This document shows positions 18,997 through 61,529 of a stretch of 64,000 bases of DNA, piece by piece. Positions within the stretch are counted from its first letter, which is position 1. The number at the start of each line of letters is the position of its first letter. The notes under the pieces were generated by a model. It was not told the origin of the DNA. It saw only the letters and a list, made by a program, of their open reading frames with translations, and searched no databases. This stretch comes from Octopus vulgaris (lineage: Eukaryota), in NCBI GenBank assembly GCA_951406725.2, contig OX597815.1, positions 154,876,001 to 154,940,000 of the forward strand, in the 5' to 3' direction. A program made the translations under genes and the position numbers.

Positions 18997-19367
18997 TATA
19001 ATACAAATAAGAAAATGGAGAAACAATATAGTTGGTTTATCAGCTTTAGGATATTAGAATGTTGACTTATTTATTTAACAAAACGAGAACCATAATAGCA
19101 TACATATATGCACTAAAATTCTATACATGTAAGATAAGAATACAATTATAAAGGCATTAATATAAATTATTGGAGTCATTAAAATCAGTCTTACATCTGT
19201 TTCAGCCCCAATAATTTATATTTAGGTCTTTATAATTGTATTCTTATCTTATATGTATTGAATTTTAATGCATATATGTATGCTATTATGGTTCTCGTTT
19301 TGTTAAATAAATAAGACAACATTCTAATATCCTAAAGGTGTTTCTCCATTTTCTTATTTGTATTATA
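18997..19367. repeat. Fold-back palindrome (arms about 160-178 bp) with a hammerhead 3' half in the spacer
   Basis: 18997-19175 is the reverse complement of 19206-19367; spacer on the minus strand reads GAAACAGATGTA; outward ends read AATAAA...CTCCA; right end abuts (TA)n. Confidence 0.85.
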
Positions 19368-19749
19368 TATATATATATATATATATATATATATATATAT
19401 ATTTACATACTCTGTATGAAAATATGTCTCTTTAAATCAAATGACGTCTTCCGCGTTTTAATAATAATAATAATAATAATAATAGTAATAATAATGAAAT
19501 ATCAATATATACATACATGCACATATACATAGATGTATACATACACTCATACATACATACATACATACATACATACATACATACATACATATATGTATGT
19601 ATATGTGTATATATATATACACCGTTGCTTTTTCTTCTTTTCTGTATCGTCTAACTGTCCGGATGCTTTGTTGTCTCTCTCTCTCTCACTCTCTCTCTCT
19701 CTCTTTCTCTCTCTCTCTCTCTTTCTGTATATATATATATATACCAGTT

Positions 19750-20133
19750 ATTTTATTCTTTCATTTGATTCAGTCATTTGAATGCAGCCATGCTGGTACT
19801 TCACCTTTAGTCGAAGAAATCGACCACAAGGCTTATTCTTCGTAAGCCTAGTATTTATTGCATGTATCAAACCGCTGAATTACGGGGACGTAAACACACA
19901 GGCAATAGTGGGGGGGGAGCAAACACACAGATACGCACGCACACACACACACACACACACAGAAAACCTCACACGGATACGATGGGCTTCTTTCAGTTTT
20001 CTTCTGCCAAATCCACTCACAAGCCTTTGACCGGCCCGAGGCTATGGAAGACAATAGCTCCAGGCGCGGGACTGAACACGGAACCATGTGGCTGCTAAGC
20101 AAGCTACTTACCACATAGTCACTCCTGCGCCTG
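19750..20133 (-). mobile_element. tRNA-derived SINE, family C, with internal (CA)n
   Basis: Minus strand GGCGCAGGAGTGACTATGTGGTAAG...GTTCAGTCCC; core aaactgaaagaagccc; other copies at 53900, 59915 and 62874. Confidence 0.8.
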
Positions 20134-21279
20134 TATACATATATATATATATATATATATATAGAATATATATATACACACGTATATATAGAATATATAT
20201 ATATATATATATATATTTGTATGTGTAACGTTATATTTCTGGAGGTGATATTATTGTGATATAGATAAAACCAAATATGTTTGAACACACAAGTTTACAT
20301 CAGATGTCTTGGAAACCAATAATTATACAAAAGGAAGTAACAAACACACATACACACACACACATATTCACATACACACACATACATATACATATATACA
20401 TACATAAATATATATATATATACATACTGACAAACAAATATATATGTGTGTGTATATATACATATATGTGCTATATATATATATATATATATATATATAT
20501 ATATATATATATATATTTATTTATCTATTTATTTATTTATTTATTTATTTATTTATATATATATATATATATCAATATATATTTTGTCTGTGTCTATTTG
20601 CAAATAACAGTGTAGCGCTATGAAGATTATAGGTAGGAGGCTACAGATGTCTGTCGCTAGATAAATATAAATACATTTCTGAAATGTAGTTCGAGGTTTC
20701 AGTGGCTGATTGCTTTTCTAATTTATTTTCTTGGCAACTGGTTGCTATTGGTGTAAACATTGTCAATAAACAATCCAAATTTATCCTGGCTCGGGGTATT
20801 AAACTGCAAATCTGAAACATTATAACTATCTGAAAATTTATTAATACTTACCAAGAAGTACACTGCATGGTTAAAGAGAGGGGTATCTTCTTTCGAATAA
20901 TCATGATTATTATAATTATTATTATCATTATTATTATTGTTGTTGTTGTTGTTGTTGTTATTCACATATGCACAACACATTAGAATGTTAGAAAACAAAA
21001 AAATCCTAACACCCCGCTACAACAAATATTGTGTTGAAGTTTCTTTCGTATAATGAATTCCCGAAGTTCATTGGGGGAAATCCACTACTATTACTTTCTC
21101 TTTTAATCTTTGTTCTCAATAGCTTTTCCTTTTTCACCGAACACTGTTCATAGTTGCTTCTTTACGGGTCAGATGTTTGTTATGTACGCAGCAGTGGGTG
21201 GATTGTATAAACTTTATAATTATTATTGATGCATAAACGAGGAACCGAGAAACAGCAATATGTTTTTACATTTCGGGTC

Positions 21280-22262
21280 TGAATAATTCACCTCTGAAAA
21301 CATGGATGTTTCATTCATCAACCCTAAACAACCCTTGTTCAGTAACCTTTGAGCAGGATGAGCTACGCGACCTGAAGAACATTCTAACTAGGCTCCACCT
21401 GCAATATTATCCGCTATGTATCTTGATAGGAGATAATAATGTGGCGTACATATGACTGTGATGCATGTGTCTGATGTACCCTTATCAGACGGGTAGTCAT
21501 GACGGGTATACTGGGCTTCGTATATTTGTACCCCAGTGTTACTTTGATGGCATGCGCTGCTCTCTCACTCAATATTGCTACTACTACTACTACTCCTACT
21601 ACTACTACTACTACTACTACTACTACTACTACTACTACTACTACTACTACTACTACTACTAATAATAATAATAATAATAATAATAATAATAATAATGAAA
21701 TAATAAATGTACTGATGCAGTACCAGGCAGTGGCTCTCGTAAGCCTCTGATCTTAACTGATTGGAAATGTTATCATGTAGATTGTTTTGTGTTGGTATAA
21801 AAGATGGGCTACAGCAAATATTCTGCTCAATACCACAGATTTGCTTGTCAGTTGTTTGACCTTAACCAGTTAAGCATATCCCTTAGTGGCTGACGATATG
21901 TGCATCTCTGATCACGAGCAGACGTATTTGGGAATCACCATAGCCATGTGTTTAGCGGGATTCTTTGGGGTTTGAATAATTCCCCTCTGGAAACATGAGT
22001 GTTTCGTTCAACATCCTTAAACAAACCTTATTCAGGGGCTTTTTGGGCGAGATAGGCTACTCGACCACAAGAAAATTCTAACAAGGTCCCACCTGCAAGG
22101 TCATGTGCTGTTTATCTTGGTATGAGATCACTATGTCGCGCACATATAGCTGTGATGCACGTGCCTAGTGTACCCTTATGAGACAGGTAGCCATGATGGG
22201 TATACTGGGCTTCGTATATTTTACCCCGGTGTCACTTTGATGACATGCACTGCTCACTCACA
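21280..22262. repeat. Two diverged direct copies (21280-21572 and 21973-22262) of a 290-bp unclassified interspersed repeat
   Basis: tgaataattc.cctctg...gggtatactgggcttcgtatattt.accc...ctcactca present twice, each followed by a triplet array. Confidence 0.75.
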
Positions 22263-22274
22263 TAATAATAATAC

Positions 22275-59145: not shown

Positions 59146-60407
59146 TGTAATGAGACCTATAATTACTGGTATTACAGTCACAACTCTCTTCTGTCCTTGT
59201 CCTATATAGTATATCTAAGTCATTATCCAATTTGTCTTTTGTTTTTATATGATGGTTGGAAATGATCCGGGGGTAACAGATTTTGGTGGCTTCTCTAGTA
59301 TATGGAACAACGGACGGAATATTTTTTTAGCGTAGTCTGTCTAGTGTGGTACTATTGACGAGAAGTTGGTGTTTGAATGAGCTATACTTTGGTTGCAGTT
59401 TCTTGTAAACTCATGCGATTGCGCATAGTCTCTGTCGTTGACTTAACGTTGTGTTTATTTATTTATTCGGTTATCTAGATTCGATTATAGCTAAGAATTT
59501 CTAGATCAAATAAGTTGAACAGACTAAAGTAGACATCTGAATACTTATACATATCATTGTTCAAGATTAATGTGAACCATAGATTTTTTCCATCTTTTTT
59601 TAAATATATATTTTTTTTTTCCGTTTCATCTACAACATTTACAAAAGAATGGTAATTTTATATGGTAATTGTTGTTGGTTAAAAAAGTGCTTCTGTTCAA
59701 GTATGAACGTGATGAATACATATTTCATTGAACAATTCTGATATCAGGCTAAATGAAATATCTCAACAAGAAACCATTTGACGTTTCTTAACTCGTTTAC
59801 TTATGATAACACTCCGTGCTGACTTTTCTCTATTTTCTCTAACAAATTTATGAGCCTACATAAAAGCTCAATGTTATTTTATTTAGTACCACTAATTTAT
59901 TTGGTTTCATTATGTCTTTCATCTTTTATTTGTTTCAATCATTAGACTAAGCTTATGCTGGGATACAACCTTGAAGAATGTTTAGTCGAATATATCGACT
60001 ATAGTACTTTCATTCTTTTTTAAATAAAGGCTGGCACTTATTCTCTCGGATTCTTTTGCCGGAGAGCTTATTTACAGGGACGTAAACACACCAGGACCGG
60101 TTGTCAAGCTGTTGTGGTGGGTAACAAACACAAATACAAAGACACATACACACACATATATATACATACACACATATATATATATATATATATATATATA
60201 TATATATATTTAAGTAGTTGAATGAATTATCCTAGTATGGATAATTCGGTTAACCGAAACCCGGGTAGCAAATTCACGCCAGAAAACACGGTTGAAGCTA
60301 CATGACAAGGGCAGTGATCACGTGCTTTCGTGTGGAAATTTGTGTGTTTTTTTACTATAAATAAATGAAGGAATGGAGTTGAACGACGATTTAACAAAAT
60401 TCCTTTA

Positions 60408-60489
60408 TTCTCGACATATGTTTCGAAGACTGCATATTCCTAATTCCGAAGGAATAAAGGGTGCATACGCCGCCTTCTCATCAGGAAAG
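60408..60489 (-). ncRNA. Type I hammerhead ribozyme (left arm)
   Basis: Mirror of 60611-60693; tcatcag at 60478-60484. Confidence 0.85.
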
Positions 60490-60610
60490 ACAAGGAACTT
60501 ATGTCAGCATCATGACGAACAAAAACTTTTAGATGACTGCCCACACGGAGTCCGTGTGGGCAGTCATCTAAAAGTTTTTGTTCGTCATGATGCTGATATA
60601 AGTTCCTTGT

Positions 60611-60693
60611 CTTTCCTGATGAGAAGGCGGCGTAAGGCACCCTTTATTCCTTCGGAATTAGGAATATGCAGTCTTCGAAACATATGTCGAGAA
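60611..60693 (+). ncRNA. Type I hammerhead ribozyme (right arm)
   Basis: TTTC CTGATGA GAAGGCGGCGTA...TATGCAGTCTTC GAA ACATATGT C GAGA; predicted cleavage after C60688. Confidence 0.85.
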
Positions 60694-61529
60694 TAAAGGA
60701 ATTTTGTTAAATCGTCGTTCCACTCCATTCTTTCATTTATATATATACATATATATATGTGTGTGTGTGTGTGTGTGTGTGTGCGTGTGTGTGTGTGTGT
60801 GTGTGTGTATGTACACAGAGATCTTCTTTCAGTTTCCGTCTAACGAATAGTCTCAGAAATCTTTTGTCAGCTGGAGGCTATAGCAGAAGTATTTTTTTCT
60901 AAAATGCCAAGCAATTGGATTGAACCTGAAACCATTTGGTTGGGAAGCAAGTTTCTTACTACACAGTCAAACAGGAAGAGGTTAATGTAGACGTCTTAAA
61001 AGTAACATATATCGTTCACAATGAATTTTGTGTTATATATCTCAGCCAGATGGGTCACACTTAATGAAGACTAAATTATTCTTACATTAATAGCGTGAAA
61101 TACAGCCAGTAAAATTTCTCACTAATTCCATGTTATTAATAAGTGACGAAATTATTAATTTTGTTGTTATCGCTGTTGATCCTGTAGTAACTCTTTCTAC
61201 TGTTACTTGAACTCCAGGTGAGCATTGATCAATCGTCCTAAGAACTAAACTTGAATCATATGTCTGTTCCAAATATACAAACTCGCTGAGACATGTTGCT
61301 CACTCAGTCATGCAGTGATTGTGTGAGCTACAGTGTGGCAGTCTGGACATGTTCTATTCTCTCCATTTTCCAGTCAAATACGGTAGAGTAAGAACGGGTA
61401 ACTAAGATTAGACATATTTGCAGTTATTCTATAACAGTTACTATATGTGCGCAGTCTAGTAAAATCTGGTGAGTGTTGATTAGACAAATGATGTCGTAGT
61501 AATTTTTGTTATTGTTTCATGTTCAGGGT

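Follow-up and report, generated by a model that had tools for sequence, protein, structure and literature searches.

Six inverted repeats in an octopus locus

We analysed a 64,000-nt stretch of the Octopus vulgaris genome (assembly GCA_951406725.2, contig OX597815.1, forward-strand positions 154,876,001 to 154,940,000), here called the window and numbered from its first letter. This AT-rich, microsatellite-dense DNA contains six inverted repeats, A (19.0 kb), B (38.05 kb), C (38.74 kb), D (38.99 kb), E (48.8 kb) and F (60.36 kb), which we interpret below as head-to-head insertions of hammerhead-bearing elements, likely made by Penelope-like proteins. An initial annotation of the window had recorded five long inverted repeats and a short one, and self-BLAST with simple repeats masked recovered all six (19001-19363, 38053-38400, 38743-38852, 38992-39776, 48810-49168 and 60356-60745), the sole short-spacer inverted repeats longer than 100 bp in its output. 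Arm-to-arm mismatch is 3.0% in F, 5.6% in A, 6.7% in E, 7.1% in D and 8.7% in B, in agreement with the annotated range of about 3% upward for the five long ones. Pairwise blastn of family references for A-F gave a best score of 26.5 bits among the matches listed; by this comparison they are six unrelated dispersed families, and the claim that they have no obvious common primary sequence stands.

In all six insertions the 3' ends point outward, the polarity first annotated. The annotated boundaries were correct for the arms and missed an extension, present on one side only of every insertion, that corresponds to the signature tail of Penelope elements. Including it, the insertions span 18826-19363 (A), 38053-38535 (B), 38632-38853 (C), 38992-39879 (D), 48591-49168 (E) and 60212-60740 (F). 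A (TA)n tract adjoins 10 of the 12 corrected outer ends, so most ends do abut (TA)n as claimed; the left end of E has a short run only, the right end of B adjoins (TC)n(CA)n(TA)n, and the right end of E is severed by an unrelated fragment.

The tail lies between two preferred 3' ends of each family, site 1 and site 2. In A it runs from site 1 to site 2 at 18826-19000 (-), on one side of a left arm at 19001-19209 (-) that holds only the 3' half of a hammerhead (19192-19203); the right arm, 19208-19363 (+), ends at site 1 and is followed by (TA)19. The left arm of B, 38053-38239 (-), ends near site 1 at (TA)9, and its right arm, 38216-38535 (+), includes the one-sided extension to site 2 at 38401-38535; hammerhead 3' halves lie at 38136-38147 and 38305-38316. 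C comprises a left arm with tail, 38632-38833 (-), of which 38632-38741 is tail, and a short right arm, 38817-38853 (+), that ends at site 1; the left arm is the 3' part of a 503-nt tandem unit from which the ribozyme is gone. In D the left arm, 38992-39440 (-), ends at site 1, crosses a tandem-unit junction at 39390/39391 and has a hammerhead at 39130-39194 with G8 changed, and the right arm, 39436-39879 (+), carries a complete core (39547-39599) and the tail (39777-39879) of a 543-nt tandem unit. E, from a 554-nt unit, has a left arm with tail to site 2 at 48591-48978 (-), where 48591-48810 has no partner on the right and the complete core is at 48882-48928, and a right arm at 48997-49168 (+) with a complete core at 49052-49098, severed before site 1 by an unrelated coding fragment. 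That fragment occupies 49163-49340 (+), and its translation resembles a Tc1/mariner C-terminus. The F tail, 60212-60355 (-), again one-sided, is the start of a Penelope-like 5' untranslated region (UTR) and ends at site 2; the F arms are pseudo-long terminal repeats (pLTRs) with complete cores at 60413-60484 (left arm, 60356-60553, -) and 60616-60688 (right arm, 60547-60740, +), the latter ending at site 1 before (TA)n. The two F arms meet at a near-palindrome. Contigs from four public runs over the F stretch contained the family, none spanned the locus, and the empty site was not seen in them. A short pyrimidine-rich motif just before the untailed ends is common to the otherwise unrelated A, B and F (18826-19363, 38053-38535, 60212-60740) and is a candidate recognition signal.

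Hammerhead motifs in every family

We assigned hammerheads by motif and stem pairing, with the core CUGANGA...GAAA...GUH. In the window the core is complete in both arms of F, both arms of E and the right arm of D; both arms of B and one arm of A hold the 3' half, and C has none. The annotated hammerheads in all five long repeats were thus right in full for F, E and the right arm of D, and only as to the 3' half for A and B, whose window copies lack the 5' half, both arms having been cut short within the long stem II. Among genomic copies spanning the region (see below) the full core is present in 29/30 for F, 24/30 for D, 19/27 for E, 18/21 for C, 9/16 for A and 8/19 for B, or 107 of 143 overall. 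The letters that pair in stems I and II differ from family to family, and mismatches occur; stem I of B has only two adjacent pairs, and in C, D and E a mismatch adjoins the core. Stem II spans 26-111 nt, stem III has one or two pairs, and the loop is palindromic in five of the six families. Judged by these motifs, every family A-F carries a type I hammerhead core.

A strict descriptor gave three matches in the window against none in 30 shuffles, finding only F among A-F, and a short-stem hammerhead descriptor misses all six repeats. Rfam returned no hammerhead family for F, E and D, and none among the 150 of 190 matches listed for the whole window; minimum-free-energy folds of single copies took the hammerhead shape in 0 of 4 (z -0.97 to 0.65). 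We rejected CUGAUAA in the left arm of A as a core sequence, the family having no GAAA partner for it. Outside any inverted repeat, a compact solo hammerhead motif with stems lies at 50081-50121 (-), and a short TA-flanked piece at 14750-15050 (-), probably of another family, has a hammerhead-like motif by eye.

Two fixed ends and their pairing genome-wide

Searches of the 2.8-Gb genome (227 contigs) gave 1280 first-look candidates for A, 316 for B, 1214 for C, 2281 for D, 390 for E and 2428 for F. For every search we scored 40 of these and fetched 30; removing 12 second arms or duplicates from 180 arm-anchored loci left 168. All six families have two preferred 3' ends, 89-168 nt apart. Scoring as inverted with a direct junction those loci with a gap of at most 120 nt and no TA run, we found 78 of 168, every one 3'-outward; there were no direct 3'-to-3' junctions, and one pair faces across (TA)9 (L040), which bears out the annotated orientation bias. 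The remaining 90 scored as not inverted, a few of them being long inversions whose junction falls outside the reference, so these elements are not mainly the fold-backs they were annotated to be. (TA)n adjoins 116 of 156 outer ends, compared with 563 of 6720 random positions (8.4%).

The two sites are paired almost without exception. Both ends are canonical at 59 of the 78 inverted loci, and 57 of these combine site 1 with site 2, two combine site 2 with site 2, and none combines site 1 with site 1 (p 3e-15 against 0.5). The ratio is 52 to 2 when the six window copies and one duplicate are removed, and 32 to 2 when C is also removed. Queries made from the tail only retrieved 47 new loci, 27 of them inverted: 25 combined site 1 with site 2, one was site 2 with site 2 and one was unclassed; by family, the mixed pairing accounted for 19/20 inverted loci in F and 6/7 in E. 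Searches anchored on the open reading frame (ORF) of F agree, as 17 of 20 fetched stretches, chosen mostly for an inverted arm, had one, and all 15 resolved F-type elements combined site 1 with site 2, with two left unresolved. Altogether 82 of 85 classifiable inverted insertions have one tailed and one untailed end.

In 28 of the 57 mixed cases the arms are not nested one within the other: in 12 the tailed arm is tail only and does not overlap its partner, and in 16 the untailed arm reaches further 5'. Inner breakpoints vary from copy to copy; in F, 13 inner ends inspected by eye do not pile up at the ribozyme cut site. In 31 of 44 comparisons an arm differed less from its partner than from other copies on average (6.2% versus 7.3%, p 0.0014). 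Of 86 simple insertions that have a canonical end, 52 terminate at site 1, which indicates that site 1 itself serves as a start site. Among ORF-anchored loci, the long ORF-bearing arm is the untailed one in L202, L206, L207 and L217.

Families F and B are Penelope-like elements

The annotation had proposed that a Penelope RT/GIY-YIG (reverse transcriptase/endonuclease) protein probably acts in trans at (TA)n, and had advised extending the arms to see if each meets the 3' end of a GIY-YIG ORF. F joins such an ORF on both sides. Its order is pLTR with hammerhead, site 1, tail, site 2, about 56 nt, ATG, RT-GIY-YIG ORF, 3' UTR and pLTR; an ORF of 800-900 aa was found in all four loci translated, the pLTR lies both before and after the ORF in L201, L204, L215 and L217, and in L153 an F arm is inverted ahead of a 3.2-kb ORF-bearing arm. 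The endonuclease part matched Pfam GIY-YIG with E 0.0015, which falls short of the curated threshold; no Pfam RT family matched the RT part, whose motifs were assigned by eye. We conclude from this arrangement that F is the pseudo-LTR of a GIY-YIG Penelope-like element and that its extension is the Penelope tail. The genome contains numerous open frames of about 899 aa that are nearly identical, so machinery of the F kind was recently active. In 14 of 29 copies F starts at reference positions 497-501, a fixed 5' end resembling a transcription start; Penelope pLTRs carry similar initiator-like motifs (PMC3846280).

Of 30 loci anchored on a related endonuclease, 7 have B in sense orientation downstream of it and 5 have B inverted upstream. 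The linked endonuclease and RT pieces are 27-40% identical to the F-type ORF; neither an intact ORF nor a direct upstream pLTR was seen among these 30 loci. By its position relative to these pieces, B too is identified as the pLTR of a GIY-YIG Penelope-like element. The extension into a Penelope-like ORF therefore held for F and B, and no ORF was reached from A, C, D or E; action in trans does not apply to F and B, whose pLTRs are their own, and would apply to the other four. Both F and B show the arrangement of endonuclease-bearing (EN+) Penelope-like elements, an inverted 5'-truncated copy with a tail at one end.

F ORFs, as translated from L218, L219 and L211, have a C-terminal GIY-YIG domain with DKT, RWL and, near the C-terminus, CxxC and CxH motifs, and no CCHH; a single cysteine lies between the GIY and YIG equivalents. 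Their linker is N/S-rich and lacks CxCX5C, which is present in a frame beside a B copy (L082). By motif description, F and B carry the motifs of the Hydra clade; the paper that describes this clade also reports inverted 5'-truncated copies, one-sided tails and a (TA)n bias (PMC8557442). F resembles that clade in its C-terminal GIY-YIG, DKT, RW(L), CxxC and CxH, its canonical hammerhead and its (TA)n targets, and differs in having RWL for RWK and an N/S-rich linker without CxCX5C (PMC8557442).

Related fragments lie in the window. An open frame at 63227-63664 (+) resembles, by eye, the linker and endonuclease start of the F-type ORF, and one at 15654-16391 (-) is a fragment of a different Penelope-like endonuclease with cysteine motifs before a GIY-like strand; neither matched Pfam, and the latter has a close copy beside L110. 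An old remnant, the 3' portion of an F-like pLTR with 76% identity, is found at 25587-25661 (+) and stops at site 1, where (TA)n follows.

Families C, D, E and A

In C, D and E the tail runs straight into the family's own start, forming tandem units of 503, 543 and 554 nt. The tandem junction was seen in 9/27 loci for C, 22/30 for D and 6/26 for E, and two hammerhead-spanning units on one strand in 2/27, 0/30 and 1/26, respectively. D and E had no ORF link among these loci and none was found for C, whose loci were not translated, and no RNA record carrying family C was listed. Judging from this organization, C, D and E are ORF-less, retrozyme-like tandem units, and copies longer than one unit are compatible with a circle or a multimeric transcript. 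They resemble animal non-LTR retrozymes in being non-coding, AT-rich tandems with one type I hammerhead per unit (PMC7229834; PMC7761336; bioRxiv 10.64898/2026.07.22.740005). They differ in unit length, 503-554 nt against the roughly 150-450 nt described for retrozymes (PMC7229834), and in having arrays of at most about two units; the inverted two-ended insertion is absent from the searched text of the retrozyme papers, where "inverted" occurs 0 times in PMC7229834 and "tail" and "TPRT" (target-primed reverse transcription) 0 times in bioRxiv 10.64898/2026.07.22.740005.

A is preceded by more than 1 kb of AT-rich non-coding sequence. About 1 kb ahead of the first hammerhead this sequence contains another hammerhead-like motif that differs from it (L319:6265-6358), and the family may combine two modules. 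Neither 30 loci nor 8 longer stretches yielded an ORF upstream of A. Two apparent partners were rejected: a Poseidon-type RT next to two E copies lies in a duplicated block as an unconnected neighbour, with a microsatellite between, and an RT start beside an A copy, with other repeats intervening, is not A's own.

Other repeats in the window

A true DNA transposon of 1.29 kb at 41238-42526, with 44-nt terminal inverted repeats around a Transposase_1 frame, provides a contrast case. Another small dispersed family is present at 722-852, 17276-17436, 17724-17855, 46148-46256 and 53096-53510, with a 184-nt tandem at 53.1-53.5 kb. Two inverted 75-nt pieces, 2 kb apart, lie at 14680-14752 and 16827-16902 with microsatellites on both sides of each, and short palindromes of 38 and 30 nt occur without TA flanks at 44708-44745 and 6277-6306.

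Discussion

We propose that every fold-back represents one head-to-head insertion of an element that bears a hammerhead, the insertion likely being made by a Penelope-like RT/GIY-YIG protein that primes on both cut strands of a (TA)n tract; we put the probability of this reading at roughly 0.7. The protein would cut both strands of the tract, and cDNA would begin at RNA site 1 on one cut end and at site 2 on the other, in a coupled, possibly dimeric event that copies either one RNA twice or two RNAs once each. Both cDNAs would extend toward the RNA 5' end, halting at variable points or at the RNA start, and would then be joined to each other, often via short overlaps; where both halt early, near the ribozyme, a short fold-back would result. 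The hammerhead would thus lie inside the fold-back only through its position just upstream of the start sites, and we give its cleavage no role. C, D, E and A would borrow this machinery in trans, as suggested by their identical footprint.

Twin priming by L1 elements offers a comparison: there, cDNA is primed from both strands of the target, and the resulting 5' inversion has both RNA 3' directions outward; the second primer anneals at variable internal sites, and the arms show little overlap. In contrast, the second start here is a fixed site and the arms often overlap by hundreds of bases. A biochemical parallel is the purified Poseidon protein, a predicted dimer that cuts both strands and extends them, starting at two internal RNA sites bracketing the tail (PMC11167929). 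Poseidon PAc is like our families in these paired start sites, in using both strands and in its AT-rich targets; it belongs to another clade, and the searched text of that study contains no report of strand or site choice per target or of inverted products, and leaves later integration steps open (PMC11167929).

The strongest competitor is self-priming, proposed for Penelope-like elements in PMC3846280, in which one target-primed cDNA, or an antisense template, loops back on a palindrome and primes its own copying; the inverted arm would then anneal, at the AT-rich site 1, to the target's other end, a step that we add here. Such snap-back copying predicts one tailed and one untailed end, just as observed, and would suit the near-palindrome where the window F arms meet. 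However, it repeats only first-strand content, and the 28 cases in which each arm has sequence missing from the other, 12 of them tail-only with zero overlap, are unexplained by it without later deletions. The long ORF-bearing arms that are untailed also speak against it, as does the use of site 1 as a start site by itself in simple insertions. We consider it unlikely as the general explanation, and it may account for some of the other 29 cases.

Several points weigh against priming on both strands. Those 29 of 57 mixed cases (19 with the untailed arm a subset of the tailed arm, 10 with level 5' ends) fit snap-back copying as well, and ends overlap at 37 of 78 junctions, which speaks for snap-back. 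Each search contributed its 30 top-scoring loci from among 316-2428 candidates, which is not a random sample; the C query is itself a fold-back. At 19 of the 78 inverted loci an end lies at neither site and is unclassed, and 3 of 85 classifiable insertions scored as site 2 with site 2, although the end so scored in L354 is probably not the true one, an ORF match lying about 350 bp beyond it; the copy is probably an upstream pLTR that runs into an ORF. The excess similarity between arms is small and absent in 13 of 44, target-site duplications are unreadable inside (TA)n, and no ORF linked to A, C, D or E was found. In vitro, no difference in start site between strands was seen in bulk, pairing per molecule being neither shown nor excluded (PMC11167929).

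Two independent same-family insertions into one (TA)n tract are very improbable as a source of the fold-backs. TA tracts are heavily reused, with nested copies at L157 and L158 and the L040 pair facing across its TA run, and yet none of the 78 junctions has a TA run between the arms; independent events should also give both polarities and about half matching ends, whereas matching ends were seen in 3 of 85, and the arms are more alike than other copies are. Less credible still are miniature inverted-repeat transposable elements (MITEs) or foldback DNA transposons, which the hairpin shape, TA flanks and high copy number would suggest: their termini should be identical and fixed and their interior constant, whereas the ends here differ by the 89-168-nt tail and the inner breakpoints vary, most loci (90/168) are not inverted, F and B run into RT/GIY-YIG ORFs, and none of the long open frames near the arms ties a family to a transposase. 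Finally, library or assembly fold-back artefacts, to which palindromes beside microsatellites are prone and of which one might think for the F stretch that no public contig spans, can be all but dismissed, as the annotation held, since the arms are 3-9% diverged with indels and six families, spread over many contigs, repeat one asymmetric geometry.

A-F are not a new class of element: Penelope-like retroposition explains them, and head-to-head inverted pLTRs with a tail on one are already described as the commonest arrangement, with self-priming proposed (PMC3846280; see also PMC8557442). Pen2a_Av (PMC3846280) and the Fig. 2 legend of PMC8557442 are alike with our families in the inverted, 5'-truncated head-to-head copy, the tail at one end and the pLTR hammerhead, as well as in a tail that continues toward the ORF start, microsatellite targets and partial tandems; their tails are 30-40 nt, compared with 89-168 nt here, and many short ORF-less fold-backs occur here. 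The searched text of the two papers treats the tail as optional or often one-sided and gives no count of end pairing, and PMC8557442 calls the origin of Penelope-like tandem and inverted structures undefined. What we did not find in print is the end-pairing rule together with the non-nested arms: open-literature titles and abstract starts, a search that did not extend to supplements such as that of PMC8557442, held no pointer to a count of end pairing or to a two-ended footprint in retrozyme-like units.

We suggest, tentatively and at somewhat less than even odds, a broader principle: that Penelope-like integration is an asymmetric two-primer reaction in which one complex primes both cut strands and is bound to use two different fixed RNA start sites, one per strand, and that ORF-less retrozyme-like units are inserted by this machinery too. 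A single mechanism, distinct from both L1 twin priming and self-priming, would then underlie the tail, the inversion and the mobility of retrozymes. Mobilization of retrozymes by Penelope-like elements has been proposed before (PMC7229834; PMC7761336; bioRxiv 10.64898/2026.07.22.740005); the window adds a six-family comparison that includes ORF-bearing elements, and the pairing rule lends genomic support to the idea that Penelope proteins move retrozyme-like RNAs. Hairpins of the A-F type should be annotated as retroelement insertions; if transcribed they would form long double-stranded RNA, and they score below threshold against miRNA-precursor models. A near-strict rule of one tailed and one untailed end, holding across six unrelated families with and without ORFs, turns the question of how Penelope-like elements build their tandem and inverted structures into a yes/no experiment.

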